A DNA stretch of 64,000 bases from Kinneretia aquatilis (GCF_002885975.1 NZ_POSP01000003.1:1770440-1834439); one strand, 5' to 3'. Shown: positions 9,981 to 27,015, numbered from the stretch's first letter. A program made the numbers and translations. Notes: generated by a model not told the origin, from the letters alone.

Positions 9981-10238
9981 TCAGACCGGAGTCACGAACA
10001 CCGTCTGACGGCTGTTCTCACCCTTGATGGCGAACGACACTTGGCCGTCGACCAGCGCGAACAGCGTGTGGTCCTTGCCGATACCGACATTGGTGCCGGG
10101 ATGGAACTTGGTACCGCGCTGACGCACGATGATGGAACCTGCAGAGATGGTCTGGCCGCCGAAGGCCTTCACACCGAGCATCTTGGGTTTGGAGTCGCGG
10201 CCGTTCCGTGTGGAACCGCCGCCCTTTTTCTGTGCCAT
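9981..10238 (-). CDS. rpmA: 50S ribosomal protein L27
   Basis: 85 aa, [17 protein letters not shown]-terminus. Confidence 0.95.
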
Positions 10239-10287
10239 GGATTAGCTCCTTGAACTGTTGGCGAAGAAGTTAGCGTTTGACCGCTGC

Positions 10288-10599
10288 TCAGCCGTTCACC
10301 GCGCTGATTTGCAGCTCGGTGTAAGTCTGGCGATGGCCTTGGCTCTTCTTGTAATGCTTACGACGACGCAGCTTGAAGATGCGCACTTTGTCGTGCTTAC
10401 CGTGGGCCACAACCGTGGCAGTGATGCTAGCGCCAGCAACCAAGGGAGTGCCAACCTTCAGTTCAGCGCCGTTGCCGACAGCCAAAATTTGGTCGATCAC
10501 AATCTCTTGGCCAACATCCGCAGCAATCTGTTCTACTTTGATCTTTTCGCCAGCCGCAACTTTGTATTGCTTGCCGCCGGTTTTTATGACCGCGTACAT
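10288..10599 (-). CDS. rplU: 50S ribosomal protein L21
   Basis: [15 protein letters not shown]-terminus; start at ATG 10599 inside ORF 10288..10677; 103 aa. Confidence 0.95.
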
Positions 10600-10901
10600 A
10601 TCAGCCCTTTCAATTGAACCACCTGCGCTTGTTGCGCACCCCTTGCGGATTTCGGCAGGCCTCCAGAAGACACCCACCTCTCACGCACCAGCACAGGCCT
10701 AAGCTCTGCAGCAAGAACTGCGCAGAGCCCGCGAGTGTAGCACGGGGCAGCGCAGATCACAAGCGCCAAGCTCCCAGCGTTTCCTTGGCGACACCTCTGA
10801 CCTGCCTTCCATCGCACCAGCGCAGCAAGACTTGCACCTCCGGGCGAAAGGGCGGCAGCGCTGTTCCTATAATCGCAGCTTCGCCAAATTGAGAGCCGAG
10901 A

Positions 10902-11906
10902 GTGCACGCTGCGCCTGCTTCGTCCCCCTCCCCCAAGCCCGTGCTGAGCGAGGCCCTTGCCACGCTGAACGCCGAGATGCTCGAAGTCGACGCCGTCATC
11001 GGCCGCCGGCTTGGCTCTGACGTCGCGCTGATCAACCAGATCGCGGGTTACATCGTCCACGCCGGCGGCAAACGCATCCGCCCCAAGCTGGTGCTCTTGT
11101 TCGCCAATGCCCTCGGCTACGACAAGCCGGAGCGTTTCGAGCTGGCCGCCGTGATCGAATTCATCCACACCGCCACGCTGCTGCATGACGACGTGGTCGA
11201 TGAATCCTCGCTGCGCCGCGGCAAACAGACCGCCAACGCCCTGTTCGGCAACGCTGCCAGCGTCTTGGTCGGTGACTTCCTCTACTCGCGCGCCTTCCAG
11301 ATGATGGTGTCGGTGAACCGCATGCGCGTGCTGGAAGTGCTGGCGGAGGCGACCAATGTGATCGCCGAAGGCGAAGTGCTGCAGCTGATGAACATGCACG
11401 ACCCGGACATCACGGTCGACAGCTATCTGCGCGTGATTCGCTACAAGACCGCCAAGCTGTTCGAAGCCAGCGCCCGCCTCGGCGCCGTGCTGGCCGATGC
11501 CTCGCCCGTAGTGGAAGAAGCCTGCGCCGGCTACGGCCGCGCCCTGGGCACCGCTTTCCAACTGATCGACGATGTGCTGGACTACGAAGGTGACAGCCAG
11601 GCCCTGGGCAAAAACGTCGGCGACGACCTGCGCGAAGGCAAGACCACCCTGCCCTTGCTGATCGCCATGGAACGCGGCACGCCCGAGCAGCGCGCGCTGA
11701 TCCGCCATGCCATCGAGCATGGCGAGCTGGAGCGCCTGAGCGAGATCGTGGAAATCGTCCGCACAACCGGTGCGTTAGATGCCACCCGCGAAGCCGCTCG
11801 TGGCGAAGCCAAGCTGGCCCGAGATTGCCTGAATTTGTTGCCTGCTAGCAAATGGCAAGAATCTCTGCTAGAATTTGCGGCTCAGTCGGTTGAGCGGTCT
11901 TTTTAA
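10902..11906 (+). CDS. ispB: octaprenyl-diphosphate synthase (polyprenyl synthetase)
   Basis: Both Asp-rich motifs of trans-isoprenyl diphosphate synthases (LLHDDVVD and FQLIDDVLD); divergent from rplU as in many proteobacteria. Confidence 0.88.
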   Translation: MHAAPASSPSPKPVLSEALATLNAEMLEVDAVIGRRLGSDVALINQIAGYIVHAGGKRIRPKLVLLFANALGYDKPERFELAAVIEFIHTATLLHDDVVDESSLRRGKQTANALFGNAASVLVGDFLYSRAFQMMVSVNRMRVLEVLAEATNVIAEGEVLQLMNMHDPDITVDSYLRVIRYKTAKLFEASARLGAVLADASPVVEEACAGYGRALGTAFQLIDDVLDYEGDSQALGKNVGDDLREGKTTLPLLIAMERGTPEQRALIRHAIEHGELERLSEIVEIVRTTGALDATREAARGEAKLARDCLNLLPASKWQESLLEFAAQSVERSF

Positions 11907-11959
11907 ACCTCGTTTGAATAGCACCCGCGCAGAGCGGCAGAACAAGTCAAAAGACAAAT

Positions 11960-12036
11960 CGGGGTGTAGCTTAGCCTGGTAGAGCGCTACGTTCGGGACG
12001 TAGAGGCCGGAGGTTCGAATCCTCTCACCCCGACCA
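11960..12036 (+). tRNA. tRNA-Pro (anticodon CGG)
   Basis: 77-nt cloverleaf: acceptor CGGGGTG/CACCCCG, D-arm, anticodon stem CTACG/CGTAG with loop TTCGGGA (CGG, G37), T-arm GGAGG-TTCGAAT-CCTCT, discriminator A, encoded CCA. Confidence 0.9.
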
Positions 12037-12112
12037 GTTGATTCTTGTTCAAGTCGCTTTGACGACGTCCATCGGATTCCTCGCAATCCACGGCCACTGG
12101 CCCACACATCCG

Positions 12113-12136
12113 ACGCTGCATTCGCAGCGTTTTTTG
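12113..12136 (+). terminator. rho-independent terminator downstream of tRNA-Pro
   Basis: Hairpin ACGCTGC-ATTC-GCAGCGT followed by TTTTTTG. Confidence 0.6.
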
Positions 12137-12228
12137 TTTCCAGATCCCTTTTTTGTTTGCCTGCCTGCGCGTGCAACCGCGCACAGAGCCCGGGCATGCA
12201 CAAGACTGCACGCGCAGGCCACTTGCGA

Positions 12229-14901
12229 TCAACGCAAGCTGCGCTGGGCGACGCCGAGATCGCGCCAGTCCTCGGGGTGGCAGGTGAAGAGCAGCAGCTG
12301 GTGGCGCTGCGCGGCGTCGAAGATCACGCGCTTCATTTGCGCCAGGCGCTGCGCATCGCTGTGCACCAAGGCGTCGTCGAGGATGAGCAGGGTCGGCCGG
12401 CCGGCTTCTTGCAAGAGGTCGGCATAGGCAAAACGGCTGATCAGCCCGAGCTGCTCACGGGCGCCGAAGCTCAGTGCTTCGAAATCGCCGCTCTCCACGC
12501 CGCGCTGGAGCAAGCCCGGCGTCAAGGCCTCGTCCACATCGAGCCGGGCATCCGGGAACAGCAGTTGCACATAACGCTGCAAATGCTGCTGCAGCGGCGC
12601 TTGCAGGCGGGCCAGGCTGGCCTGGCGTTTGCCGTCGAGCTTGCGGCAGAGCAGATCGAGTGCAGCAGCGCGCAGCCGCAGCTCATGCCAGCGGCGCTGG
12701 GCGCGTGCAAGATCCCCGGCGCTTTGCTCGCGCTGCTCGTCCAAGCCCTGCGCGCCCGCCTGCTGCAGGCTCTGCTCGATCAGCTGGATCTGCACCGCAA
12801 GCTCCTGATGGGCCTGCTGCATTTGTTGAACGCTGCGCTGCAGGCGCGCGATGTCTTGCTGGACGATGTCCGGCCGCGCGCGGTCCAGGCTGGCTTGCAA
12901 AGTTTCGATGCGGGCAGCCACGGCCGCCAACTCAGCCTCCCCGGCCAGCCACTGCCGCTGATGCTCGCGCTGCCGCTCCAATCGACCGGGCTCGGCCAAC
13001 TGAGCTCGGGCCAGCTCCAGCTCGCGCTGCGCTTGCAGCTGCTGGGCCTCCATCGCGCTGTGCTGTTGTTCCAGGCGGCCGAGCTGCTGGCGGGCCGCTT
13101 CTTCCACGCGCTGGGTCGCATCGAGCGCAGATTCAGCCTCAGCCACACTGAGCGCAGTGGCCGCTTCACCGGCGGCCTGCTGCGCCAGCGCATCGTGCAA
13201 GGCCAAGAGCCGGGCCTGCAGATCGGCCTGCTCCTGCTGCAGCCGCGCCAGGCCCTGGGGCGCGCTCAAGGCCAGAGCCTGCTCGACCAGCTTGAGCTGG
13301 GCCAAGGCTTCCTGCTGGGCAGCAAACCGACTCTCCGCCTCGGCCAGGTCCTGCACGCCCAAACGCTCCATCGCTGCGGCATGTTCCGCTCGCGCCTCGC
13401 TCCAGCGAGCCTCCAGGCCGTCCAGATCCTGGCCGCCTGGCGTGATGCGCAAGCGCCCCAGACCCGGCAGATCGAGCACCCCAGGCGCAGCCAGCAAGAC
13501 CTGACCCTGGCCCGCGAGTGATTCCGCCTCGGCCTGCCCCTCCTGGCGCAAACGCAGCTGCTGGCCCGCATCCAGCTTGAACTCCAGCCGGGTGGCCAAA
13601 GCCTGGCGCTGCAAGCTCAGCTCGCGCAGACGCTGATCCAGCTTGCGCAAGGTATCCAGGTCAGCCTTGGTGAGCGGCCGCTGCTGCGCCTGCGGCGCAC
13701 GCAGCGCAGCCACGCTCTGCTGGGCCGCCTCGGCATGTTGCAAGGCCTCGGTCATGCGGGCTTGCTGATGCTGCGCGGCCTCCAGCTGCTGTCGGGTCTG
13801 GCGCGCGGCTTCGGCCTGGCGGGACTGTTGCAACTGGGCCTGGGCCTGGCGCACCTGGGCGCTGCTGTGCTTGAACTGATCGCGCGCCGGGGCCAGGCCA
13901 GCCTGCGCGCGCTGCAGCTGTTCGCTGGCCTGCGCCAAGGCCTGCTCGCGCTGTGTGGCAGCACGCTCCTGTTCGGCAAAAGCCTGCAGCTGGCGCTGCA
14001 GCAGTTGCTGCTGATTCTGCAACTGGTTCATGCGCTGGCGGGCCTCGCCCAGCTGCTGTTCGCTCTGCTGCAGGGCCGTTTGCGCCTGCTGGGCTTGAAG
14101 CAACTGCTGCTGCAGCTGCTCCCAAGGCCGCTCTTGCTCATCGCGCTGGTGCTGGCTGCGCAGCTGGGCCAAGCGGTCCACATCCTCGCGGTAACGGGCG
14201 ATCTGCAGGTCCAGATCCTGCAGCGATTGTTGCAAAGCCTGCACCCGCTGGGCGGCCTGCTCCAGCTCGGCGCGAGGCTTGCCGGTGGCCGTGAGCAGCT
14301 CGCCGCGCTGGGCGCGCAGCTCGCTCAGCAGCGCATCGCCACCGCTGGCCGCCACCTGGGCGGCCGCGCCCTGCCCCAAGCGCTCGGCCTGGCTTTGCAA
14401 GGCGCCGTGCAGATGTTCGCGAGCATGCTGGGCCGCCTCGCGCAGCTCTTGGCCTGTGCCCTGCTCCACCCAGAGCAGGCCCGGTATGCCCCAATGCTCG
14501 GTCTTGCTGGCGCCGCGGCTGGCGAAGCCGTAGCCGAAAAGCTGGGCCAGATGGTCCTCGGCCTCCGCGCCCTCCAGGCTGCGTGCATCGATGCGCAAGT
14601 CGCAGCGCGGCCGTTTGCCGAAGCTCTTGGCCAGACGGTACTGGTGGCCATCGAAAGCAAAGTCCAGCTCCACGCTGGGCGCGGCGCTGCTGTCGCCCCA
14701 GGGCAGCAGATCGCCCACGGCCGATGAGCGGTGCCGCTCAAAAAAAGCGGCACGGATGGCGCGCACCAGGCTGCTCTTGCCCGCCTCGTTCGGACCGCAA
14801 AAGATGTTGAGGCCGGGTTGCAGGTTCGCCAGCTCGAATCCTTGCCGGAACTGCCGCAGCTGCTCGACGCGCAGGCGGCTCAGTTGCAGAGGCGCGTTCA
14901 T
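12229..14901 (-). CDS. SbcC/Rad50-like coiled-coil AAA ATPase (YhaN-type)
   Basis: 890 aa; N-terminal Walker A FCGPNEAGKSS; ~600 aa of Q/A/L/E/R-rich heptad-like coiled coil; C-terminal Walker B/D-loop LLILDDALVHSD and H-loop LLLFTCH. The signature motif is degenerate (LSFGAREQ). 4-nt overlap with the upstream nuclease gene. Confidence 0.75.
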   Translation of the reverse strand: MNAPLQLSRLRVEQLRQFRQGFELANLQPGLNIFCGPNEAGKSSLVRAIRAAFFERHRSSAVGDLLPWGDSSAAPSVELDFAFDGHQYRLAKSFGKRPRCDLRIDARSLEGAEAEDHLAQLFGYGFASRGASKTEHWGIPGLLWVEQGTGQELREAAQHAREHLHGALQSQAERLGQGAAAQVAASGGDALLSELRAQRGELLTATGKPRAELEQAAQRVQALQQSLQDLDLQIARYREDVDRLAQLRSQHQRDEQERPWEQLQQQLLQAQQAQTALQQSEQQLGEARQRMNQLQNQQQLLQRQLQAFAEQERAATQREQALAQASEQLQRAQAGLAPARDQFKHSSAQVRQAQAQLQQSRQAEAARQTRQQLEAAQHQQARMTEALQHAEAAQQSVAALRAPQAQQRPLTKADLDTLRKLDQRLRELSLQRQALATRLEFKLDAGQQLRLRQEGQAEAESLAGQGQVLLAAPGVLDLPGLGRLRITPGGQDLDGLEARWSEARAEHAAAMERLGVQDLAEAESRFAAQQEALAQLKLVEQALALSAPQGLARLQQEQADLQARLLALHDALAQQAAGEAATALSVAEAESALDATQRVEEAARQQLGRLEQQHSAMEAQQLQAQRELELARAQLAEPGRLERQREHQRQWLAGEAELAAVAARIETLQASLDRARPDIVQQDIARLQRSVQQMQQAHQELAVQIQLIEQSLQQAGAQGLDEQREQSAGDLARAQRRWHELRLRAAALDLLCRKLDGKRQASLARLQAPLQQHLQRYVQLLFPDARLDVDEALTPGLLQRGVESGDFEALSFGAREQLGLISRFAYADLLQEAGRPTLLILDDALVHSDAQRLAQMKRVIFDAAQRHQLLLFTCHPEDWRDLGVAQRSLR

Positions 14902-16049
14902 GCCGACAGCTCCCTGCGGCGCTGGGCCAGAGTGGCAGTCAGCAAGGCCAGGGCCTCGCGGGCGATCTCGGCCTCGCCCGGCTCCTCAGAGCTTGGTGCC
15001 GGTCCGGCCGCTCCCAGTTCGCGCAGCTCCGCAATCACCTCGGCTAGATAGCCATCGGCCTGCAGGGCGGCGATGTCCTCGTCGGTCGGCGCCAAGCTCA
15101 GGGCCGAGGCCTCCACGCTCAGGTGGCGCAGGCGCCCCCGCAACACGGCCAGTGCGGCATTCAAGCGCTGATGCAGGTCCAGCGCCAGCTGGCCTTCGAG
15201 CCGCAAGCTCAACACGGTGTGGGCCGGCAAGGCCTCCAGGCGCTGCAGCAAGCCGTCCAGATCGCTGGCCACGCGCAGGCTGGCGGACAGCTCCAGCCAG
15301 TCGAACTGCGCCGTGCGCAGCGCCTGCACGCGCGGCTCCGCACCGGGTGCGTCGATCTCCACCAGCAGGGCCTGCCCCGAGTCATTGGCCTTGAATCGAT
15401 CCGGCTCGGGCGTGCCGCTGTACCAGCAGCGAGCCTCGATGCGCTTGCCGCCATGCCAGTCGCCCAGGGCCAGGTAGTCCAGGCGCGCACGCGCTGCGCG
15501 GTCCGGCGCGATCGGGTTGGTCGCGTCGACCATGGACTCGGCCAGGATGCCCTGCACGCTGCCATGCGCCAGGCCCAGGCGCAACCAGCCCGCCGGCGTC
15601 TCGACCGCGTCGAACCAGGCTGTGCTGTCCCCGTAGGTATGACGTTGGCTCAGCGGCGCCGGCAGGATGGCCGTGCGGCAGGCTTCCAGCAGCAAGGGCT
15701 CGGGCCGTAGGGCCAGATGCACATGGGCCGGCACCGCGCCCAGGCGCCGGGCACGCGTCCACACGCTTTCAGCCAGGGCCGCATCGTGGTTGCCCGAGAT
15801 CAGCACCCAGGGCCCGCTGAAGCCTGCCATGGCGTTGAACATGCGGCGTATCGTTCGCTCCGACACCGTCTGCGCATCGAACACATCGCCGGCCACCAGC
15901 ACCGCATCGACCTCGTGTGTACAGGCCAGTGCGGCCAGCCGCTCCACGGCCGCCAAGCGCGCTTCGGCCAGGGGCAAGGCATCCTCGGGATCGAAGCTGC
16001 TGAACCAGCGGCCGATCTGCCAATCGGCGGTGTGCAGGAATCTGGGCAT
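14898..16049 (-). CDS. SbcD/Mre11-like calcineurin-type phosphoesterase (YhaO-type nuclease subunit)
   Basis: 383 aa; phosphoesterase motifs LHTADWQIG (motif I, with Q where SbcD has H), AGDVFD (II), ISGNHD (III); sits immediately upstream of, and overlapping, the Rad50-like ATPase gene. Confidence 0.75.
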   Translation of the reverse strand: MPRFLHTADWQIGRWFSSFDPEDALPLAEARLAAVERLAALACTHEVDAVLVAGDVFDAQTVSERTIRRMFNAMAGFSGPWVLISGNHDAALAESVWTRARRLGAVPAHVHLALRPEPLLLEACRTAILPAPLSQRHTYGDSTAWFDAVETPAGWLRLGLAHGSVQGILAESMVDATNPIAPDRAARARLDYLALGDWHGGKRIEARCWYSGTPEPDRFKANDSGQALLVEIDAPGAEPRVQALRTAQFDWLELSASLRVASDLDGLLQRLEALPAHTVLSLRLEGQLALDLHQRLNAALAVLRGRLRHLSVEASALSLAPTDEDIAALQADGYLAEVIAELRELGAAGPAPSSEEPGEAEIAREALALLTATLAQRRRELSA

Positions 16050-16085
16050 GGGCTGCAGGCGTGAAAAAATTTCAGTGAGGAAGAC

Positions 16086-18065
16086 TCAAACAGCCAGCAA
16101 GTCCAGCAGGCCACTGGCCCGCCGGGTGCGCTGGCGCAAGGCTTGGTGGAAGGTCTGGGCCTGGGGGCTGACCAGGGTGAAGAACTTGCGGGCGCGGGTG
16201 ATGCCGGTGTAGACCAGCTCGCGGCTCAGATGGCTGCCACCCTGCTCGGGCAGCACCAACACCGTGTGCTCGAACTCTGAGCCCTGGGATTTGTGCACCG
16301 TCATCGCAAACGCCGTCTCCACATCGTTGAGGCGGCTCACGCCCACCGAGCGCAGCTGCGGGCCATCGAGGAAGTAGGCGCGCAGGGGAATCAGGCCCTG
16401 GGCATCGAGCAGCTTGTGCGGCTTGAGCGCGATGCCGATGTCGCCGTTGAACACGCCGACGCTGGGGTCGTTGCGCGTGACCATGAGGGGCCGGCCCTCG
16501 TACCACTCGCCGCGCCGGCTCAGCAGACCCGCCTCGGCGAGAGCCCGCTCCACCGCCAGATTGATCCCCTCGGTGCCCCAGACGCCGGCGCGCACGGCGC
16601 AGAGCAGGCGAAAGCGCTCGAATTCGCCCAACACCCAACGCGCCCAGTCCTCAAAGGCCAGCAGGCCGGCCTCCGCCGGCGGGCGCTGGCGCAAGGCTTG
16701 CAAATACGAGGCATAACCGCCCGGCGCACCGGGCCGCCCCTGCAGGGCCAGGCGCAAGACATCGGCCGGCTCGGGCGCTGGCAGCTGCAGCAAGGCCTGA
16801 TCTTCTGCTTGCGCCATCAAGCCTTGAGCCGCCGCCACATCGCCGCGGTTGACCGCCAAGGCCAGCTGGCCGATCGGCCCACCAAAACGCCGGCTTTCGC
16901 GAAGCATCACGGTGGCCTGGGCCAGGGCTTGAGGCCGCTCGGCCTGCAAGTACTCGGCAGGCAAGACCTGACCCGTCGCCGCCTGCGCAAAAGCCGCGGT
17001 GGCCGCGCTGTAGCCGCCACGCTCGGCCTCGCGGCAGAGATCCCCCAGCACCGCGCCGGCCTCCACCGAGGCGAGCTGGTCCTTGTCGCCCAGCAGGATC
17101 AAGCGTGCGCCGGGCGGCAAGGCCTCCAGCAAGGCCGCCATCATTTCCAGATGGACCATGGACGCCTCGTCCACGATCAGCACATCCAACTCCAGCGGAT
17201 GGGCCGCATCGGCGCGGAAGGCGCGCGTGTCCGGCCGCGCGCCCAGCAAGGCGTGCAGGGTGCGCGCGGGGCCGATGTGGGAGGCCAGCTCGCGCAGATC
17301 GAAGTCCGGCGCCAGCGCCTCGGCCAGGCCTTGCAGGGCCGACTCGATGGACTGCTTGAGCCGCGCCGCCGCCTTGCCCGTCGGGGCGGCTAGGGCCACG
17401 CGCAGGGTCTGGCGCTGCGCGTGGACGGCGAACAGCAGAGCCAGCAGGCGCGCGGCCGTGTAGGTCTTGCCCGTGCCCGGGCCGCCGGTGATGACGGCCA
17501 GGCGGCTGCGCAAGGCCACGGCACAGGCCAGTTGCTGCCAGTCCAGGCCCGCGGCCGGTATGGGGAACAAGCGGCACAGCCAGGCGCGCAAGGCCAAGGT
17601 GTCGAGCCGCTCGGTCGCGGACACGCGCGCCAGCACCTGGCTGGCCACGCGCTGCTCGTACTGCCAGTAACGGCGCAGATAAAGGCGCTGGCCTTGCAGC
17701 ACCAGCGGGCTGTGGTTGTCGGGCGCGCCGGGCTGCCAGACCAGGGGGCTGGCCGCCAAACACTGCGTCCACTCGGCCGGCGTCGTCGGCAGGTTCAGCT
17801 CCGCCAAACGTTGCGCCGGCTCGGCACCCCAGCCCAGCAGGTCGGGCGCGTCCTCGCAGAGCTGCGCCAGGGGCAGGCAGGCATGGCCACGCCCTTCCAG
17901 ATGGCTGAGCAAGGCCACGGCCAGCAGCACGGCCGCATCGGCCTGCGGGTCCAGCTCATGCATGAAGCCGGCCAGGGCCGCGTCCAGGCGGCGCAACCAC
18001 TTGTTCTGCACCCAGGCTTTCAACTCCTGCTGCAGCGCGGAGGGCGTGATCGGGTCCATGGTCAT
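16086..18065 (-). CDS. recD: exodeoxyribonuclease V alpha subunit
   Basis: 659 aa, SF1 helicase motifs (ITGGPGTGKTYTAARLL, DEASMV), RecD-type N-terminus; overlaps the recB stop. Confidence 0.9.
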   Translation of the reverse strand: MTMDPITPSALQQELKAWVQNKWLRRLDAALAGFMHELDPQADAAVLLAVALLSHLEGRGHACLPLAQLCEDAPDLLGWGAEPAQRLAELNLPTTPAEWTQCLAASPLVWQPGAPDNHSPLVLQGQRLYLRRYWQYEQRVASQVLARVSATERLDTLALRAWLCRLFPIPAAGLDWQQLACAVALRSRLAVITGGPGTGKTYTAARLLALLFAVHAQRQTLRVALAAPTGKAAARLKQSIESALQGLAEALAPDFDLRELASHIGPARTLHALLGARPDTRAFRADAAHPLELDVLIVDEASMVHLEMMAALLEALPPGARLILLGDKDQLASVEAGAVLGDLCREAERGGYSAATAAFAQAATGQVLPAEYLQAERPQALAQATVMLRESRRFGGPIGQLALAVNRGDVAAAQGLMAQAEDQALLQLPAPEPADVLRLALQGRPGAPGGYASYLQALRQRPPAEAGLLAFEDWARWVLGEFERFRLLCAVRAGVWGTEGINLAVERALAEAGLLSRRGEWYEGRPLMVTRNDPSVGVFNGDIGIALKPHKLLDAQGLIPLRAYFLDGPQLRSVGVSRLNDVETAFAMTVHKSQGSEFEHTVLVLPEQGGSHLSRELVYTGITRARKFFTLVSPQAQTFHQALRQRTRRASGLLDLLAV

Positions 18066-21000
18066 ACCTCTTCTACTTTTTCTTCTTCCTGGTGCTGCGC
18101 ATCGATCAGATCCTCAAGCCCCTCCAACAGCGCCAGCGGCGGCCGCACCCACAGGCAGCCAGCCTCGGGGCCGTCCATGCCGCGCATGAAGAGGTAGAGC
18201 GCGCCGCCCAGGTGCTGGGCCGGCTCGTAAAGCTCGCCCAGGCGCTGGCGCAGCAGGCGGTGCAGGGCCAGCAGGTAGAGCGCGGCCTGCACGTCATAAC
18301 GGTGTTCGGCCATGGCAGCCTCGAGGACCTCATGGTCGTAATCGGCATCGCGCTCACCCAGGGCATTGGACTTGTAGTCCAAGACCCAGAAACGCCCGCC
18401 CTGCTCGAAAACCAGGTCGGCAAAGCCCATCATCAAACCCTGCAGCGCCCGCTCCGGCAGGGCCGGACGCGGCCGGCCGCCGAGCAGATGCTGGCGGCAG
18501 AGCGCGTCGATGGACTGCGAGCTCAGCCCGCTGCTGGGGAACCAGAACTCCATTTCCGGCAGCAGCGCGTCCAGGCGCGCCAGCGAAGCGCCCTCGCTCA
18601 GCGGCGGCAGCGGCGTTTGCAGCAGGCGACTCAACCAGCTCAAGACCTCGTCCGACCAGTTGCCCCAGCCCTGACGCTCGCAGCGCGCTCGCAGCTGGGC
18701 TTGCAGGGCCGGAGACTCGGCCAGGGCAAAGCCCTCACCGGCCAACCATTCCAGCTGATCGTGCAGAAAATTGCCGGCAAAAGCGCCACGCGGGAAGCGG
18801 TGCCAGGCGGGCAACAGGCTGACGCTGCTTGATGTTTGGGTTTCAGCGGGCGCCTGCGCCGCCAGGGCCGCCGCCTCAGGGTCAGCCAGGCGGTCTTCGT
18901 CGTCGCGCGCGGCAGCGTCGCTGATCAGGCGGCCGGCATCCAGGGCCGGCGCCTTGGCGCTGCTCAGCGCGCGCACCAGGGCCGAGAAGCTGCTGACCGT
19001 CCAGCGGCGCTCGAACTGGGCCTCGTACACCTCGGCTTCGCGCAACGGCGGCGCCGACCCGCGCGCTTGCAAGGCGCTGCAGGGCCAGTCCGGGCGGTAG
19101 ATCAGGCGGCTCAAGTGAATGCCAGCCGGGTCGCCAGCGGCCAGATCCTCGGCCGAGCTCCAGAGCTCCTCCGGCGTCTGCGGCACACCGCCACCGAGCA
19201 CATAGCCCAGGGCGCTGCGGTGCACCTGGCAATCGTCGCTCTGCCCCACTTTCAAGGCCGAGACGCCCAGCCACAGGGCATGGCGGGCGCGGGTTAGGGC
19301 CACGTAGAACAAGCGCAGGTCCTCGCGCTGGCGCTCCAGATCGGCGGCGGCGATCTGCTCGGCATCGGGCTCCAGATGCAGCTGCTGCTCCAGCTTGACG
19401 TAGCGCGCGCGGCGCTTGTCCACGGCGCGGAAGCTGGCGGCAAAGGGCAGGAACACCAGTGGGTACTCCAGGCCCTTGGATTTGTGCACCGTCACCACCC
19501 TGACCAGATCGGCGTCGCTCTCCAGGCGCACGATCTGCTCCTCGCCGCCGGTGCTGCCGGGCTCGGCGATCTGGGCCGCCAGCCAGCGGATCAGGGCCTG
19601 CTCGCCGTCCAGTTGGCTGCTGGCCGACTGCAAGAGCTCGGCCAAGTGCAGCACATTGGTCAAGCGGCGCTCACCGCTGACCTGCAACGTCAGGCCTGCG
19701 GCCAGCCAACGGCTGGGCAGCTGCAAACGGTGCAGGGTCTGGCGCAACATGCTCAAGACACCCTGCTGCTGCCAGACACTGTGCAAGGCCTTGAGCTGCT
19801 CGCTGCGCAGATCAAAGGCTTCGTCGTCGCGGGCCAGTTCGGCCAGCTCAACCAGGCTCAGCCCCAAGGTCGGGCTGGCCAGGGCGGCGCGCACCAGGCG
19901 GGCATCGAGCGGGGAAGCCACGGCGCGCAGCCAGGCCAGCAGGTCGCGGGCCTCATCGCTGGCGAAGACCGAGTCCTTGTCCGACAGGTAGACCGAGGCC
20001 AGGCCACGGCGCCGCATGGCCTCGCGCACGGCCGAGGCCTCGCGGGCATTGCGCACCAGCACAGCGATGTCGGCCGGGCGCAGGCGCTGGAATCTGCCCT
20101 GGGTTTCATTCAAGAACCCGGCTTTCTCATCATTGAGCAGGCTGACGATGGTCTCGGCGCACACCTCACCAAAGCGCTGCAGGCTGGCGCGGCCGTCCTG
20201 CAAATCCAGGTCCAGCCACAGCTGCAACGCGGGAACGGCACCGCTGCTGCAGACGAACACCTCACCCCGCCCGCGCGCCGCCACGGGCTGGAAGGGCAAG
20301 GGACTGGCCAGCCCGGCGCTGCCCAGCAAGAAGGCGCCGGCGTCAAAGGCCTCGGCCCGGGCGAACACGCTGTTGACTGCCTGAACCAAGGCTTGCGTCG
20401 AGCGGTGGTTGGTGCCCAGCAGATAGTGGCGGCCCTCGGTCTGGCGGCGTACGTTCAGATAACTGTAAATATCGGCGCCACGGAAACCGTAGATCGATTG
20501 CTTGGGGTCGCCGATCAGCAAGAGCGTGCTGTCGCGCGCGTTGCCGGCGATGCGGTAGAGCCGGTCGAAGATGCGGGTCTGCAGCGGCGAGGTGTCCTGG
20601 AACTCATCGATCAAGGCCACCGGGTACTGGGCCCGCATGCGCTCGCGCAGGCGGCGCGCATGGTCGCCATGCCGCGCTTCATCGAGGGCCTCGTCCAGGC
20701 GCTGCAGCATGTCAGCAAAACCGAAGCTGCCGTCCTGGCGCTTGAGCTCGGCCAGGCGATCGCGGATGTGCAGGGCCGCATGCAGGCGCAGCGGCGCGCT
20801 GGCCGAGGGCAAGGCGGCCAGGCCGGCGAGCAACTCTTCGAAGGCGGCGAACTCGGGCGGCCAGTCGGGCTCCGCAGCATCGGGCTTGAGCGCTTCTTTC
20901 ATGCCGCGGAGCGGCAAGCGCTTGAGGGCCGAATCGCTGAGTTCCAGCGTCTCCTGCTCGGGATCGAGCGCCCATTCGGCCAGGGTTTTCAGCCAGGCGG

Positions 21001-21856
21001 TGTAATGCCGCGTCGCCAGCTTGCGCTTGTCGAAGGCGCATTGCTTGGGTGCTAGCTGCACATCAATCCAGCGTTGCATGGCCTCGGCGCGCTCGACCCA
21101 GCCATCCTTCAACAAGGCCAAGGCCTCACGCCGCCGGGCTTGCAGCGCCTCGATCAGCGCGCCCAGCGAGCCCGGCAGCGCCTGCTGAAAACCGGCGCCC
21201 TCACTCGCCTGGTCCAACTCCTGAGCCATCAAGGCCTGGGCATCGGCGCCCAGCGCGGCCACACCAGGCCAGACCTCGAACACGGCATCGAGCTGCTCGC
21301 CAGCAAGCGGGTAGACCTGCTGGCGCCAGTAGTCCTGGGTGGCGCCGTCCAGCAGCAGGCGCTCGTTGGCCACCAGCTCTTCGTCGAACAGGCAGCCGCT
21401 GTCGAAGGCATGCTCGCGCAGCATGCGCTGGCACCAGGCGTCGATGGTGTGCACGGCCGCTTCGTCCATGCCCTCGGCCGCGGCGGCCAGGCGCCAGGCT
21501 GCAGCGCGGCGGCCGGGGCCTTCGGGGTAGGCCTCGAGCAGGGCTTGCAGCAGCCCATCGGGGGCGGCCAACTCGCCGCGGAACACCCGCGCCGCCTCCA
21601 GCAAGCGTGCGCGGATGCGGTCAGACAGCTCGCGCGTGGCCGCGCGGGTGAAGGTCATCACCAGAATCTCGGCCGGCTGCAGCGGCCGCTCAAAAGCCGC
21701 CTCCTCGCCGCCATGGCCCAGCACCAGGCGCAGGTAGAGGGCCGCAATCGTCCAGGTCTTGCCGGTGCCGGCGCTGGCCTCAATCAGGCGGCTGCCCCAG
21801 AGCGGGAAGCTCAGGGGGTCGAGGGGAATGCCCGGGGTGTTCACGAAGGCGATCAT
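18062..21856 (-). CDS. recB: exodeoxyribonuclease V beta subunit
   Basis: 1264 aa, UvrD-like helicase N-terminus (LIEASAGTGKTWTIAALYLRL) and C-terminal PD-(D/E)xK nuclease domain; overlaps the recC stop. Confidence 0.9.
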   Translation of the reverse strand: MIAFVNTPGIPLDPLSFPLWGSRLIEASAGTGKTWTIAALYLRLVLGHGGEEAAFERPLQPAEILVMTFTRAATRELSDRIRARLLEAARVFRGELAAPDGLLQALLEAYPEGPGRRAAAWRLAAAAEGMDEAAVHTIDAWCQRMLREHAFDSGCLFDEELVANERLLLDGATQDYWRQQVYPLAGEQLDAVFEVWPGVAALGADAQALMAQELDQASEGAGFQQALPGSLGALIEALQARRREALALLKDGWVERAEAMQRWIDVQLAPKQCAFDKRKLATRHYTAWLKTLAEWALDPEQETLELSDSALKRLPLRGMKEALKPDAAEPDWPPEFAAFEELLAGLAALPSASAPLRLHAALHIRDRLAELKRQDGSFGFADMLQRLDEALDEARHGDHARRLRERMRAQYPVALIDEFQDTSPLQTRIFDRLYRIAGNARDSTLLLIGDPKQSIYGFRGADIYSYLNVRRQTEGRHYLLGTNHRSTQALVQAVNSVFARAEAFDAGAFLLGSAGLASPLPFQPVAARGRGEVFVCSSGAVPALQLWLDLDLQDGRASLQRFGEVCAETIVSLLNDEKAGFLNETQGRFQRLRPADIAVLVRNAREASAVREAMRRRGLASVYLSDKDSVFASDEARDLLAWLRAVASPLDARLVRAALASPTLGLSLVELAELARDDEAFDLRSEQLKALHSVWQQQGVLSMLRQTLHRLQLPSRWLAAGLTLQVSGERRLTNVLHLAELLQSASSQLDGEQALIRWLAAQIAEPGSTGGEEQIVRLESDADLVRVVTVHKSKGLEYPLVFLPFAASFRAVDKRRARYVKLEQQLHLEPDAEQIAAADLERQREDLRLFYVALTRARHALWLGVSALKVGQSDDCQVHRSALGYVLGGGVPQTPEELWSSAEDLAAGDPAGIHLSRLIYRPDWPCSALQARGSAPPLREAEVYEAQFERRWTVSSFSALVRALSSAKAPALDAGRLISDAAARDDEDRLADPEAAALAAQAPAETQTSSSVSLLPAWHRFPRGAFAGNFLHDQLEWLAGEGFALAESPALQAQLRARCERQGWGNWSDEVLSWLSRLLQTPLPPLSEGASLARLDALLPEMEFWFPSSGLSSQSIDALCRQHLLGGRPRPALPERALQGLMMGFADLVFEQGGRFWVLDYKSNALGERDADYDHEVLEAAMAEHRYDVQAALYLLALHRLLRQRLGELYEPAQHLGGALYLFMRGMDGPEAGCLWVRPPLALLEGLEDLIDAQHQEEEKVEEV

Positions 21857-24800
21857 GGCTGAGCCTCCAGGTTCGACACATCGCCCTGCACGGCTTCATG
21901 CAGCTGCATCACCACGCCTTGCTCGGCCCAGGCACGCAGAGGGCCGAAGAGGCGCTGGGCCAGATCGGCAAAGCGGCCGTCGGCGCTGAGTGCGGCGTAG
22001 CTGGGGTAGACGCGGGTGAGGCTCATCTCCTCGCCCTCGCCCGGCATGGCCTGGCGCCCCGCCGAGGCAAAGCCGCCGCCCTCGAAGACCTCGACCGGCT
22101 TGCCTTTTTCGGTATCGAGAAAAGCCAGCGCGGTCTTGGGCGCCAGCGGCAAAGGCTCCTGCATGCCTTGCTGCCACAGGGCGATCAGATCGGCCAGCAG
22201 GGGCTGCGCCTCCTCCTGGCCCAGCGGCTGCAGCTGCAGCCAGGCATCACGCCCGACCAGCACGCCGGGCACGGTGTCGAACCCGCAGCTGCTGGCCGCC
22301 AACATGCGCACCCAGGGGGCGATCAGGCGCTCCATGCGCAGCGCCGGCGGCTTGCCTTTGGCTGCGGCCTTGCCGCACAGGCGGCTGGGCAGCAGCTGCA
22401 GCCACACGCGCTCGGCAAACAGGCCTTCGCCGGCCTGTTGCAGCCCGTCGAGCCAATCGTCCAGCGGGCCCAGGCGCAGCGGGGCCTTGGGCGCGGCATC
22501 GGGGTAGTCGGCCTGCAGGCGCAGCCAGCGGTCGAGCATGGGCAACAGTTCCTCGGCCAGGCGCTGTTCTTCACGGCGGCCCAGCTCGGCCATGGGCAGG
22601 CGGCCGGCGCGCTGCAGGCGGGCAGCCTGCAGGCGGATCAGCGCGGCCAGATCGCCCTGATTGAGAGGCGGCGCAGCGCTTTGCAGGCGCTGCTCCTGGG
22701 CATTGAGCACCTGGTCCAGCAGACCGGCCAACAGGCTGTGGTCTTGCAAGCCATCGAGCGCGAAGGCCTCGGCGTCCTCGCCGGCCTCGTCTTCCGCATC
22801 CTCGAAGTGCACATTGAGCCGGCGGCGGAAGAACTCGCGCACCGGGTTGCGCAGAAAGCTGACCAGGGTGGCGAGCTTGAGCGGCGCTTGCTCCTCCTCG
22901 GCCGCGGCATCCATGCCGATGGACTCGCTGCTCAAGGGCTCCGCTTGCAGATGCGCATCGCGCCACTCACGGGCATGCGTGAAACGGCGCGGGTCGGCCG
23001 GCTGCTCGAAATAGCGGCGGCTGAAGGGCTGCAGCGGGTGCTCGGTGCTGAGCGCCTCGGGCAAGCCCTGACCCCAGCCGGCGGCCAGATAGTCGCGCAG
23101 CTGCGAGACCAGCACCGAGGGCGGCTGCTCGCTGTTGTCGCGCGCGCTGCGGCCGCTCCAGCTGATGTAGAGCTGGCGCCGCGCCGAGAGCAAGGCCTCC
23201 AGCAGCAGCTGGCGGTCGTCCAGCCGACGCGAGCGGTCGCCCGGGCGCAGCTGACCGGGCAGGCCCATCAAATCGAAATCGCTGCGGGTGCTGCGGCGCG
23301 GGTAGTCGCCATCGTTCATGCCGAGCAGGCAGACCACTTCAAACGGTACGGCGCGCATGGGCATCAAGGTGCAGAAGGTGACGCCACCGGCGCGGAAGCG
23401 CTTGTTCAGGCCGGGCTCGTCCACCCCGTCCAGCCAGGCCTCGCGGGCCACGGCCAGGTCCACCGGCTGATCCACAAAACCGGCCGCCTCGCAGGCCTCC
23501 AGCCAGGCCGAGAGGCCGGCGTTCAGCGCCGCCAGGCTCAGGCGTTCGCGCTCGTCGCTGGCTTCGAAGAAAGTCTCCAGCAAGGCGCGGCCGCGCGCCG
23601 CCCACTCGGCCGGCGTGGCCAGGCTGGCGCTCTGCGCCTGCCAGTCCAGCAAGGCGCCGAGCAGATCGGCGAGCGACCCGGCCAGATGCGCCTCCAGCCC
23701 GCCGATCTCGCCGTAGGGCTCGATGCCCTGGTAGGCCTCGCCCTGGCCGCTGGCAAAGCCCAGCAGCATGCGGCGCAGGCCGAAGGCCCAGCTGTTCTGC
23801 TCGCCACAGGCCGCCAGGCCCAGGCTGGCGCGCTGCTCGGCGTTCAGGCCCCAGCGGATGCCGGCGCCGCTGATCCACTGCGCCAGGCGCGGCAGATCGG
23901 CCGGCTCCAGACCGAAGCGCAGGGCCAGGCCCGGCACATCGAGCAGATCGCGCAGCTCGCTGGCGGTGCAGCGTGCTTGCGGCAGGCGCAGCAGCCACTC
24001 CAGCGCCACCATCAGCGGGTTGTTGCCGCGCTCGCTCAAGTCGGCAATGTCGAAAGGAATGTGGCGCGCATCGCTGCGCGCGTACTGGCCGAAGACCGAG
24101 CGGATGGCCGGCGCAAAGCCCTCGACATCAGGCAGCATGACGACGATGTCGCGCGGCTGCAGCTTCGGCAGGCCCGGCGGTGGCGGCGCGGCCAGCAGGC
24201 TCAAGAGCTGGTCGTGCAGGATCTCAACCTCGCGCTGGGCACCGTGGGCGATGTGGAAGACGATGGAGCGGTCCTGCAGCAGGGCCGGCTCGGGCGCACT
24301 GCGGCCGTAGCCGGCATGTTCGGCCAGGGGCACCAGGTCACGGATGCGGGCCTGCACCTGCTGCAGCAGGCTGCCGCCCTCGCCTTCAGCGGCAGCTTCA
24401 TCGAAGAGGTCGATCTTGGCCGCGGGAAAGCGGGCCTGGGTCTGCACCGCATCATCAAAGGCATCGAGCGCGCGCACGAAATCGCGGCCCTGGCGGCCCC
24501 AGGCGGCCAGCAAGGGGTGGGCGTGGGCATGCATCTCCTCCAGCGGCAGCTCGGCCAGATCGCGGCCCTGGCGCAGGGGCTGGCGGCGGCGCTGCTCGCG
24601 AAGCTGTTGGCGCAGCAGCTCGCGGCCGTCGATGATGTCTGCCCAGTGGTAGCGGCAGGGGTTGGGCAGGGCCAGGATGACCTGGCAGTGGCGGGCCAGC
24701 GCGGCCAGGGCCTGCAGCGTCTGCTGCGGCACATGGGTCATGCCGAACAGAACCAGGCGGCGCGGCAAGCCGCGCGGCGGCTGGCTCTCGTCCTGCAGCG

Positions 24801-25491
24801 CCTGCATGAAGCGCTGGTGCAGCACCGGCCGCGTGCCGGCCCGCTCGGCCGCCGAGAGCGGCTGCAGCAAGGCACGCCAGAGCCAGGCCTGCCAGCGTTG
24901 ATCGGGCGCCAGCGGCGGGGCTTGGCGCAGGTCCAGCTGTTCACCGGCCGGGGCCAGCTGGGCGGGCAGCACATCGTGGCCGAGGCCCCAAGCGTCCAGC
25001 CAGTCGCTGCGGTAGATCTGGTACTGGTCGTACAGGTCAGCCAGGCGCTGGGCCAGCTGCAGGCGCCGGTCCAGGCCACCGCGCCGCAGAAAATCAGCCA
25101 GGGGCGCGTAGACCTCGGCCGCTTGCGGGTCGGATGCCGCTGATTCCAGCAGTTCGGGCAACAAGCGCATCAGCCGCCAGGTCAGCGGCAGCTTGTCCAG
25201 CGGCGACTGCGGCGGCACGGTCTCGCGGCCCAGCAGCTGGCGGTAGCTGCGCCACATGAAGCGGGCGGGCAGCTCCACCCGGGTGGCGGCGCAAATGCCG
25301 CGCAGGCTGGCCAGCTGCATCTTCAGCCACTCGGCCACGCCATTGCTCTGCACCAGCAGCACTTCTTCTTCCAGCGGGCGCAAAGGGCTGCGGCGCAGCC
25401 ACTCGAACACCGCATCGCCCAGCAGCTCGGCGCGGTTGCCGTGCAGGACCAGCAGGCCGGGGGTGATGTCGGTGGATGGGAGTGCGCTCAT
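21853..25491 (-). CDS. recC: exodeoxyribonuclease V gamma subunit
   Basis: 1212 aa; RecC-type N-terminus MSALPS...GLLVLHGNRAELLGDAVFEWL; first gene of the rec operon. Confidence 0.9.
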   Translation of the reverse strand: MSALPSTDITPGLLVLHGNRAELLGDAVFEWLRRSPLRPLEEEVLLVQSNGVAEWLKMQLASLRGICAATRVELPARFMWRSYRQLLGRETVPPQSPLDKLPLTWRLMRLLPELLESAASDPQAAEVYAPLADFLRRGGLDRRLQLAQRLADLYDQYQIYRSDWLDAWGLGHDVLPAQLAPAGEQLDLRQAPPLAPDQRWQAWLWRALLQPLSAAERAGTRPVLHQRFMQALQDESQPPRGLPRRLVLFGMTHVPQQTLQALAALARHCQVILALPNPCRYHWADIIDGRELLRQQLREQRRRQPLRQGRDLAELPLEEMHAHAHPLLAAWGRQGRDFVRALDAFDDAVQTQARFPAAKIDLFDEAAAEGEGGSLLQQVQARIRDLVPLAEHAGYGRSAPEPALLQDRSIVFHIAHGAQREVEILHDQLLSLLAAPPPPGLPKLQPRDIVVMLPDVEGFAPAIRSVFGQYARSDARHIPFDIADLSERGNNPLMVALEWLLRLPQARCTASELRDLLDVPGLALRFGLEPADLPRLAQWISGAGIRWGLNAEQRASLGLAACGEQNSWAFGLRRMLLGFASGQGEAYQGIEPYGEIGGLEAHLAGSLADLLGALLDWQAQSASLATPAEWAARGRALLETFFEASDERERLSLAALNAGLSAWLEACEAAGFVDQPVDLAVAREAWLDGVDEPGLNKRFRAGGVTFCTLMPMRAVPFEVVCLLGMNDGDYPRRSTRSDFDLMGLPGQLRPGDRSRRLDDRQLLLEALLSARRQLYISWSGRSARDNSEQPPSVLVSQLRDYLAAGWGQGLPEALSTEHPLQPFSRRYFEQPADPRRFTHAREWRDAHLQAEPLSSESIGMDAAAEEEQAPLKLATLVSFLRNPVREFFRRRLNVHFEDAEDEAGEDAEAFALDGLQDHSLLAGLLDQVLNAQEQRLQSAAPPLNQGDLAALIRLQAARLQRAGRLPMAELGRREEQRLAEELLPMLDRWLRLQADYPDAAPKAPLRLGPLDDWLDGLQQAGEGLFAERVWLQLLPSRLCGKAAAKGKPPALRMERLIAPWVRMLAASSCGFDTVPGVLVGRDAWLQLQPLGQEEAQPLLADLIALWQQGMQEPLPLAPKTALAFLDTEKGKPVEVFEGGGFASAGRQAMPGEGEEMSLTRVYPSYAALSADGRFADLAQRLFGPLRAWAEQGVVMQLHEAVQGDVSNLEAQP

Positions 25492-25645
25492 GGAAGGGAT
25501 AGGGTCTTGTTCTGGCCGAAGGTCGGCGTTCCTCGCGCCGGGCCAAATTCAAGCACAGAACTGGGTCGGCTCTGGAAAAGAGTCCGCCATGCCCAGCGGC
25601 CATGACCTTGGGCGAGGGCGCCGCACTTGCGCACAATGGTGTCCC

Positions 25646-26425
25646 ATGAGCATGAACGTTGACGCCTATCTGCAGCGCTTGGCCTACTGCGGCGACCGCC
25701 AGCCCGATCTCGCCACCCTGGCCGCCTTGCAATGGGCCCATCTGCGCCAGATCCCGTTTGAGAACCTCAGCATCCATCGGGGCGAAGCCATCGTCCTCGA
25801 AGAGACCGCCTTGTTCCGCAAGATCGTCGAGCAGCGCCGCGGTGGCTTTTGCTACGAGCTGAACGGCTTGTTCGCGGCGCTGCTGCGTGAGCTGGGCTAC
25901 CGGGTCAGCTTGCTCTCGGCGCAGGTGGCCGGGGCCGATGGCATGTTTGGGCCGGAGTTCGACCACCTCTGCCTCGCCGTGCACCTGGAAGACGGCGCCT
26001 ACCTGGTCGATGTCGGTTTCGGCGATTGCTTCCTGCAGCCGCTGCCGCTTGAACCCGAAGCAGCACCGAGCCGACAGGGCCGCCATGTCTACCGCATTCA
26101 GGCGCTGGGCGGCGTTCGCACACTGCAGCAACTCCCCGCTGAGCACGAGGCCTGCGCGAGCTGGAGCGACGAATACCGCTTCAACTTGCAGGCACGAGAC
26201 TTGAGTGATTTCGAGCCGATGTGCCGCTTCCACCAAAGCTCGCCCGACTCGCACTTCACGCGCAAGCGCATCTGCTCTCGGGCCACGGACGATGGAGGCC
26301 GCATCAGCCTCAGTGATCGGCGCCTGATCCTCACCTCGGCCGAAGGCCTCAAGACCGAAAGCCTGCTGCCTTCGGAAGCGGCCTGTCAACAGGCCTTGCT
26401 CGACCATTTCGGAATCCAAGCATGA
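25646..26425 (+). CDS. arylamine N-acetyltransferase
   Basis: NAT family: N-terminus MSMNVDAYLQRLAYCGD...LATLAALQWAHLRQIPFENL and catalytic Cys motif RGGFCYELNGLF; start chosen at ATG 25646 inside ORF 25256..26425 (the upstream part is low-complexity). Confidence 0.8.
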   Translation: MSMNVDAYLQRLAYCGDRQPDLATLAALQWAHLRQIPFENLSIHRGEAIVLEETALFRKIVEQRRGGFCYELNGLFAALLRELGYRVSLLSAQVAGADGMFGPEFDHLCLAVHLEDGAYLVDVGFGDCFLQPLPLEPEAAPSRQGRHVYRIQALGGVRTLQQLPAEHEACASWSDEYRFNLQARDLSDFEPMCRFHQSSPDSHFTRKRICSRATDDGGRISLSDRRLILTSAEGLKTESLLPSEAACQQALLDHFGIQA

Positions 26426-27015
26426 GTGACACGCAACAAGCCACACATCAACCGCGCGGCAAGATCGTCGGCCTAGGCGGCAGCCTGCGAGCTGCCTCTC
26501 TGTCGGCAGCTGCCCTGCGCGCCGGCATGGCCATGGCGGCTGAACTGGGGCTGGATTGTGAAACCCTCGATGTGCGCGAGCTGCAGCTGCCCATGTACCG
26601 GCCCGACTGGGCGCTGGCGGACTACCCGGCCGAACACCAGGCTTCGCTGCAGCGCCTGGTCGCGGCATTCCGCAGCGCCGACGCCATGCTCTGGACCTGC
26701 CCGGCCTACCACGGCGCCATGAGCGGGGTTTTCAAGAACGCGCTGGACTTCATGCAGCTGCTGGCCCGCGACCCGCGGCCCTATCTGCAAGGCTGTGCGG
26801 TCGGCCTGGTGAGCCTGTCCGACAGCTCCCCCCTGGGCGGCATGGCCCATTGCGTGCAGGAGCTGCGTGCCTGGCTGGCGCCGACACGCCTGACCCTGGA
26901 CGACGGCGACTTTGATGACGCGCTGGCGCTGCGCGATGAAGCGGCACAGCGCCGGCTGCGGCGCCTGGTGGGCGAGCTGGCCGGCTTTGTGGCCAGCCAC
27001 CCCCTGACCCGCTGA
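26422..27015 (+). CDS. NADPH-dependent FMN reductase family protein (azoreductase/ArsH-like)
   Basis: 197 aa flavodoxin-like fold, KIVGLGGSLR...WTCPAYHGAMSGVFKNALD typical of pfam03358; ATGA overlap with the NAT stop. Confidence 0.75.
   Translation: MSDTQQATHQPRGKIVGLGGSLRAASLSAAALRAGMAMAAELGLDCETLDVRELQLPMYRPDWALADYPAEHQASLQRLVAAFRSADAMLWTCPAYHGAMSGVFKNALDFMQLLARDPRPYLQGCAVGLVSLSDSSPLGGMAHCVQELRAWLAPTRLTLDDGDFDDALALRDEAAQRRLRRLVGELAGFVASHPLTR

Follow-up and report, generated by a model that had tools for sequence, protein, structure and literature searches.

In Kinneretia aquatilis, the genes specifying RecC, RecB and RecD run on, in the same orientation, into two further genes, one coding for a metallophosphoesterase of the Mre11/SbcD type and the other for an ATPase resembling Rad50 and SbcC. 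The locus raises the question of whether this nuclease/ATPase pair works together with RecBCD, serves in defence, stands in for SbcCD or simply happens to lie behind recD. It was addressed using a 64,000-nt stretch of the genome (GCF_002885975.1 NZ_POSP01000003.1:1770440-1834439), hereafter called the window, which has a G+C content of about 69%. By analogy with known systems we lean modestly towards the first of these explanations, in which the pair would be an SbcCD-like complex that opens DNA ends and hairpins and is co-expressed with RecBCD from a five-gene cluster. The identities of the genes, the folds and motifs of their products, the gene junctions and the linkage seen in other genomes are observed here; that the pair forms a complex with nuclease activity, is transcribed together with recCBD and cooperates with RecBCD we infer. 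What is new is an unnamed, hook-less family with an altered metal site, and its repeated fusion, in variable gene order, with recCBD in the Comamonadaceae and Sphaerotilaceae.

The five-gene cluster

An initial annotation had described five consecutive genes with tight junctions, and direct reading of the open reading frames (ORFs) and junctions bore out all of its factual statements, including coordinates; all five ORFs are on the minus strand (Table 1). In order, the genes specify RecC, RecB, RecD, a metallophosphoesterase and an ATPase similar to structural maintenance of chromosomes (SMC) proteins; the last two are referred to below as the nuclease and the ATPase. The first three products are full-length orthologues of the subunits of RecBCD (exodeoxyribonuclease V). 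RecC matches TIGR01450 with 963 bits (cut-off 583) over residues 14-1131, as well as Pfam RecC_N and RecC_C. RecB matches TIGR00609 over its full length (928 bits, cut-off 696) and Pfam UvrD-helicase, UvrD_C and PDDEXK_1, and is thus a superfamily 1A (SF1A) helicase with a C-terminal PD-(D/E)XK nuclease domain. RecD scores 545 bits against TIGR01447 (cut-off 310), matches Pfam RecD_N and AAA_19/AAA_30, and is a RecD1-type subunit with an N-terminal domain, its gene being contiguous and overlapping with the recB, recC cluster.

Table 1. Coordinates of the five genes and of the non-coding features at their borders (positions in the window)
Feature	Position	Strand	Description
recC	21853-25491	-	1212 aa, RecBCD gamma subunit; TIGR01450, Pfam RecC_N, RecC_C
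recB	18062-21856	-	1264 aa, helicase-nuclease, beta subunit; start overlaps recC stop (ATGA)
recD	16086-18065	-	659 aa, alpha subunit, SF1B helicase; start overlaps recB stop (ATGA)
recD-nuclease spacer	16050-16085	-	36 nt, GTCTTCCTCACTGAAATTTTTTCACGCCTGCAGCCC
Nuclease gene	14898-16049	-	383 aa, Mre11/SbcD fold
ATPase gene	12229-14901	-	890 aa, Rad50/SbcC-like; start overlaps nuclease stop (ATGA)
3' hairpin	12163-12219	-	GC-rich, after ATPase stop; RNA fold, without U-tract
Divergent intergenic region	25492-25642		About 150 bp, recC / arylamine N-acetyltransferase; presumed promoter region

Each of the three overlapping junctions has a purine-rich, Shine-Dalgarno-like stretch upstream, read from the sequence as GGAGG at recC/recB, GAGG at recB/recD and GGGAG at nuclease/ATPase. 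The only junction without an overlap is that between the recD stop and the ATG of the nuclease gene. Its spacer contains no terminator-like hairpin (folding is no better than that of shuffled sequences, z = +0.9) and is identical in a 95%-related Roseateles genome (locus L081). A scan of positions 11000-27000 for sigma-70-like promoters returned no sites, a scan that is uninformative at 69% GC. Terminator-like matches in the same interval numbered 11, with 8.3 expected from shuffles, and none of those falling in the five genes is outside coding sequence. The five genes likely form one operon, co-transcription being likely because the genes share a strand, their starts and stops overlap at ATGA, the 36-nt spacer is free of hairpins, no promoter-like sites were seen inside the cluster and a hairpin follows the last gene.

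At the upstream border, an arylamine N-acetyltransferase gene on the plus strand diverges from recC. The match of its product to Pfam Acetyltransf_2 begins at ORF residue 151, so that the true start lies near 25643, and the intergenic region left between the two genes is presumed to hold the promoter of the cluster. Neither a sigma-70 consensus nor a LexA box was found in this region; LexA boxes (CTGT-N8-ACAG, one mismatch allowed) were absent near the cluster as a whole, and matches were fewer than in shuffles. At the other border, the RNA fold of positions 12090-12240 has a minimum free energy of -69 kcal/mol (z = -2.8 against shuffles) and includes the GC-rich hairpin of Table 1, directly behind the last stop codon and the likely point at which the transcript ends. 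Two hairpins are present here, a short one (12221-12239) that spans the ATPase stop codon, and the long one; the tract behind the latter is rich in A, not in U. Beyond them lie a convergent tRNA-Pro terminator (12112-12131), tRNA-Pro itself (11960-12036) and a convergent ispB gene. The same five-gene arrangement is found in the 5.66-Mb genome of the related Roseateles, where it is followed by ispB, rplU, rpmA, obg and proB; the context is that of the core chromosome, among housekeeping genes. The last two genes match recCBD in G+C at third codon positions (GC3) and in codon preferences, and are native in composition. Two long ORFs run antisense to real genes, one of 1081 aa opposite recC (21898-25143, plus strand) and one of 524 aa opposite the N-acetyltransferase gene (25094-26668, minus strand); the latter has no Pfam match, and both are apparently artefacts of the high G+C content.

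An Mre11-fold nuclease and a hook-less ATPase

The 383-aa protein is an Mre11/SbcD-fold nuclease of an unnamed family. Its Mre11-type nuclease core is joined by a capping domain and, at the C-terminus, by helices (334-347 and 359-382); the helices sit where Mre11 has its Rad50-binding helices and would correspond to them. Sequence models match only the first 90 or so residues (Pfam Metallophos). Against the SbcD model TIGR00619 the protein scores 54.4 bits, below the cut-off of 77.65 and over residues 3-91 only, and against NF008206 it reaches 40 where the cut-off is 450. By comparison, a canonical Burkholderiales SbcD, specified by a Cupriavidus megaplasmid and used as a control, matches TIGR00619 over its full length with 177.6 bits. 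Pfam SbcD_C is present in every listed relative of this control, but was not matched by the window nuclease and is not recorded for its relatives.

The residues at the metal site of the nuclease are D9, Q11, D55, N87/H88, H162, D197 and H199, and not all of the ligands seen in Mre11 (D, H, D, N, H, H, H) are retained. In a profile alignment to SbcD, Gln11 falls at SbcD His10, and Asp197 at the first His of the GHIH motif. Both replacements are invariant in 51 relatives. Motifs II-IV and the catalytic His are also invariant. Among the 150 best representatives of the family, motif I reads D-[WL]-Q in about 110 and D-[WL]-H in about 27, and since the latter keep the His, the Gln is a derived trait that marks a large subclade.

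The 890-aa protein is a Rad50/SbcC-like ATPase without a zinc hook. It carries a Walker A motif (GPNEAGKSS), a signature motif (LSFGAREQL), a Walker B motif (LLILDD) and an H-loop (FTCH), and has two coiled-coil arms (about 150-434 and 493-781) that are predicted to fold back on each other. At their apex, AlphaFold2 predicts a six-strand beta-domain (437-486) with a predicted local distance difference test score (pLDDT) of 84-91, the model as a whole having a pLDDT of 80.5. Directly after this domain is a conserved ITPGG motif, in which P488-G489-G490 are invariant. The translation contains four Cys, none of them in the arms, and no CxxC, which is likewise missing from the four relatives examined. 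Matches to Pfam AAA_23, AAA_27 and SMC_N are confined to the N-terminus, and the SbcC models TIGR00618 and NF007600 gave no match. Foldseek searches of the PDB returned generic SMC/Rad50 structures, which do not discriminate between families. The closest sequence relatives are from Roseateles/Paucibacter, with an ATPase identity of 95%.

The pair shares with Escherichia coli SbcCD a two-gene layout, in which the nuclease gene comes first and overlaps the ATPase gene, and an ATPase whose ABC-type head is interrupted by long coiled coils that run antiparallel. It differs in that BLASTP alignment is limited to the first 95 residues of the nuclease and to the Walker A region of the ATPase, in the presence of Gln11 and Asp197 in place of two His, and in the absence of an SbcD_C domain; the ATPase falls short of the length of SbcC by about 160 aa and has the apex beta-domain of about 50 aa instead of CxxC. 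With the SbcD and SbcC models failed, no CxxC and such limited BLASTP matches, while the Cupriavidus control passes, the pair is to be classed from its sequence as Mre11/Rad50-like without being canonical SbcCD, much as the initial annotation had proposed.

These differences also bear on the idea that the pair is simply the divergent SbcCD orthologue of this lineage, having replaced the canonical genes and retaining the same hairpin-cleaving role only. The overlapping nuclease-then-ATPase order and the fold match SbcDC, some sources label relatives of the nuclease as 'exonuclease SbcCD subunit D', and the 120 best relatives of the Cupriavidus SbcD include no named member of the Comamonadaceae or Sphaerotilaceae, an observation that is only suggestive. 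Against orthology stand the failed SbcD and SbcC models, the missing SbcD_C domain and zinc hook, and the short BLASTP alignments. In addition, the Rhodocyclales contain both families at the level of the order, and paralogy is therefore favoured over replacement. A functional replacement of SbcCD by the pair is possible; orthology in the strict sense we consider very improbable.

In architecture, the pair fits best with SbcE/SbcF (YhaN/YhaO) of Bacillus subtilis, when compared by published description. In that system the ATPase lacks CxxC, has a central domain of its own in which a proline is conserved, and is encoded adjacent to an SbcD-like nuclease, with a role in double-strand break repair (PMC2811018). 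The likeness extends to a hook-less SMC-like ATPase, a central domain between the coiled coils, a nuclease gene upstream and the conserved proline (P488 of ITPGG in the window protein), the two central domains having been compared by description. The differences are that SbcE/SbcF is known from Gram-positive bacteria and from a yhaO-yhaN-yhaM operon, whereas the window locus has no yhaM-like gene. The label 'YhaON-type' given in the initial annotation thus stands as far as the missing hook and the central domain are concerned; the match to the AAA_27 profile is weak (24.1 bits against a cut-off of 22) and covers only positions 18-52, that is 35 of 206.

Distribution and links to helicase-nucleases

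Relatives of the nuclease were collected with a pattern scan that used one genome per species, and were found in at least 585 genomes; neighbourhood counts refer to the best 80 of these. Gene overlaps and neighbouring ORFs in the related loci were called with a criterion based on G+C at the three codon positions (GC1/GC2/GC3), and recBCD linkage was counted from tblastn matches, independently of ORF calls. The best 80 come from Betaproteobacteria (Burkholderiales, Rhodocyclales, Thiobacillus and Alcaligenaceae) and Gammaproteobacteria (Marinobacter, Halomonas, Halopseudomonas, Saccharophagus and others). The two genes form an autonomous module; in 79 of the 80 loci the ATPase gene comes directly after the nuclease gene, and of the 56 loci in which the junction was measurable, 49 have the ATGA overlap. 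A profile search of the full library returned 889 representative clusters (50% identity) at E <= 1e-30, almost all with a length of 365-400 aa. Labels in the sources are generic ('DNA repair exonuclease', 'metallophosphoesterase', 'AAA family ATPase'), and a search of the literature on COG4717/PF13514, on WYL plus metallophosphoesterase and on Mre11-/Rad50-like defence systems returned nothing on this nuclease/ATPase family, which is apparently widespread and unstudied.

Genes of recBCD lie within 10 kb of the pair in only five of the 80 representative genomes, the number expected by chance being about 0.5 (for a target of 20-30 kb in a genome of about 5 Mb). The order recCBD-pair is found in the window and at L081, and probably also in Rubrivivax gelatinosus (L079), in which the contig breaks off within a recD-like gene directly beside the nuclease gene. 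The reverse order, pair-recC-recB, is present in three Variovorax species (L001, L003 and L006). In two metagenomic contigs (L103 and L104) the cluster pair-recC-recB-recD is complete, its genes overlapping or, at one point, 23 nt apart; gmk-rpoZ-spoT lie next to it, and the nuclease is 72% identical to that of the window. At L009, convergent recD-recB genes are found 3 kb from the pair. The recBCD-linked copies are not monophyletic in a neighbour-joining tree, and on this ground the juxtaposition of recCBD and the pair arose at least three times. In Variovorax davisae (L001), a gene for a WYL-domain regulator (8967-9905, minus strand) is divergent from the pair-recC-recB cluster, which hints at a LexA-independent control of that version of the cluster that senses single-stranded DNA. 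In Pseudomonas aeruginosa, recD is PA4283 and recB is PA4284; PA4281/PA4282, which we take to be sbcD/sbcC, presumably lie beside recD/recB/recC, and this case was not used as evidence.

Other helicase-nucleases are also found next to the pair. Eight near-identical sphingomonad plasmids carry, directly upstream of it, a gene for an 1100-aa fusion of a TM0106 RecB-type nuclease and a DNA2-like helicase. On one of them, Sphingobium plasmid pNIN3 (L092), positions 4607-13817 specify a divergent WYL regulator, the TM0106 fusion and the pair, with another WYL regulator behind the ATPase; genes for HEPN, DUF3883 and methyltransferase proteins are nearby on this and the seven near-identical conjugative plasmids. 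The TM0106 fusion was considered as a general third partner and rejected, as it is adjacent only in this one plasmid lineage and nearby in L004. In Roseateles toxinivorans (L100), a congener, a single block (7204-22667) combines the pair with a NERD/UvrD-like helicase upstream and, on the other side, with an HNH protein, a type I restriction-modification (R-M) system (two HsdM, HsdS and HsdR) and an McrB-like ATPase, and looks like a defence island. At further loci, genes near the pair specify UvrD-DUF5710 helicases (Achromobacter) or a DnaE2-like polymerase (Carnimonas).

Several observations weigh against a partnership with RecBCD. About 74 of the 80 representative loci have no recBCD within 10 kb, the pair usually standing alone, and RecBCD is therefore not an obligate partner. 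A clear Shine-Dalgarno sequence was not found in the spacer before the nuclease gene, and a promoter for the last two genes may lie inside recD. Two canonical metal-binding histidines are replaced (Gln11 and Asp197), leaving nuclease activity and metal use putative, and some members of the family lie in defence islands or on plasmids. A further explanation is a neutral juxtaposition, in which an independent housekeeping two-gene operon was rearranged behind recD, the two units being expressed and acting separately; most family members are stand-alone, the one non-overlapping junction, without a Shine-Dalgarno sequence, lies between recD and the nuclease gene, and in the tree the window pair groups with unlinked copies from Aquabacterium. 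A neutral origin is harder to reconcile with the recurrence of recCBD linkage, which takes at least three forms, including two tightly joined clusters of five genes, and with five linked loci seen where 0.5 or so would be expected per 80. It is also opposed by the linkage of other members to other RecB/UvrD-type helicase-nucleases and by a spacer that has neither a terminator nor a promoter-like signal, and we regard it as quite unlikely.

The genes around the pair likewise bear on a role in defence. The pair could be an anti-mobile-element module, with the Rad50-like protein sensing foreign ends and the Mre11-like protein as effector, parked beside RecBCD or exploiting it; RecBCD is itself an anti-phage nuclease. 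The Roseateles toxinivorans block, in which the pair lies between the helicase and the HNH, R-M and McrB-like genes, fits this, as do the WYL, HEPN, DUF3883 and methyltransferase genes that flank the sphingomonad pairs. On a Burkholderia aenigmatica plasmid (L094, 7992-14834), the pair is directly followed by the anti-phage genes DUF4297 and HerA and flanked by integrases and an insertion sequence (IS) element, and TIR- or AAA_13-type neighbours occur at single loci. Relatives of about 40% identity are present in 113 plasmid or chromid records, 65 of them conjugative, mostly Rhizobium chromids and sphingomonad conjugative plasmids (Alphaproteobacteria). The genomic context of the family is variable, and no neighbour is conserved.

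Other evidence speaks against such a role. Integrase, transposase and R-M families are not among the 25 commonest immediate neighbours (80 chromosomal loci, 138 scanned), which are mostly unrelated metabolic genes. The tree largely separates gammaproteobacterial from betaproteobacterial lineages, and synteny is stable within Marinobacter. A scan of viral contigs found no family members, only Mre11-like genes of 23-35% identity. Lamassu LmuB, Gabija GajA, PARIS AriA and Wadjet JetC share a Rad50/SMC-like ATPase head with the window protein, but the latter scores only 16-26 bits against the PADLOC models, mostly in the Walker A region; its best match in PADLOC-DB 2.0 is GajA (25.9 bits, residues 7-55). 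The nuclease matched none of the families in that database (Lamassu, Gabija, PARIS, Wadjet, Septu and others), and across all five proteins the scan returned only generic helicase and Walker A matches. To our knowledge, none of Lamassu, Gabija, PARIS and Wadjet uses a partner with an Mre11 fold. The defence alternative raised in the initial annotation thus has genuine but minority backing from members on islands and plasmids, and none from the PADLOC results, the viral contigs, the bulk of the neighbourhoods, or the native composition and core context (rplU, rpmA, obg, proB and ispB nearby) of the window locus; we consider it unlikely.

Elsewhere in the window, Rfam detects a partial tRNA at 32829-32895 on the minus strand, with 55 bits over positions 4-67 of a 71-position model; ARAGORN did not call it. 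It is about 1.1 kb from a tRNA-Glu/tRNA-Arg pair (33963-34126), within a stretch (28-36 kb) of lower G+C (0.62-0.64, compared with 0.68-0.72 elsewhere), and may be the remnant of an island integration site. A 320-aa ORF (27935-28897, minus strand) with a C-terminal PEP-CTERM sorting motif lies beside an MlaC-family gene (27018-27686).

A proposed link between end opening and resection

RecBCD cannot load on DNA ends that are capped by a hairpin or blocked by protein, and an opener is needed. In E. coli, SbcCD and RecBCD are functionally tied, the former cutting hairpins and the latter repairing the resulting break, and the link between them is genetic only. The explanation favoured here would place both steps in one gene cluster. 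By analogy with SbcCD and Mre11-Rad50, the nuclease and ATPase would assemble into an ATP-driven complex that clamps DNA ends, hairpins or protein-blocked termini in an ATP-dependent manner. The complex would then cut the clamped hairpin or blocked end open, leaving a clean duplex end as the substrate for RecBCD loading, resection and the loading of RecA. With the module in the recCBD transcription unit, the 'end opener' and the 'end resector' would be made together.

The encoding of a resection machine together with an Mre11/Rad50-type complex is already known. In archaea, herA-mre11-rad50-nurA operons specify a resection helicase and nuclease along with Mre11-Rad50; HerA and NurA belong to families unrelated to RecBCD, and the archaeal Rad50 is canonical, with a zinc hook. 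Closer in layout is a putative operon of B. subtilis, addB-addA-sbcD-sbcC (PMC1533848), where genes for an end-resecting helicase-nuclease are followed, in the same orientation and order, by an Mre11/Rad50-type pair. That operon differs in specifying AddAB and a canonical, hook-bearing SbcC and in being found in Firmicutes, whereas the proteobacterial clusters specify RecBCD and also occur in reverse order. More generally, SbcCD co-occurs statistically with RecBCD/AddAB (PMC1193525). The initial annotation had called the union of RecBCD and such a pair in one unit unusual. The low proportion of linked genomes agrees with this, although the claim is softened by the B. subtilis precedent, the reported co-occurrence and the reverse-order Variovorax clusters. 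The finding named there as telling against the proposal, a pair that falls within canonical SbcCD and an arrangement that is common in relatives, was not the one obtained.

Looking more widely, it is conceivable, and we offer this only tentatively, that bacteria possess a third class of Mre11-Rad50-type complex, as yet uncharacterised and exemplified by the pair: hook-less, with a beta-domain at the apex and a Gln/Asp-substituted dinuclear metal site. Such a complex might be a portable 'end-opening' accessory for SF1 helicase-nucleases (RecBCD, TM0106-type fusions and NERD/UvrD-like proteins), serving in chromosome repair in some genomes and in plasmid or phage restriction in others.

The presence of both functions in one gene cluster, in two gene orders, provides a natural system in which the hand-off from end opening to resection can be tested. 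The altered metal site and the missing zinc hook make the family useful for asking which features of Mre11-Rad50 are dispensable, and its occurrence beside other helicase-nucleases and in defence islands may help to define the boundary between repair and immunity.

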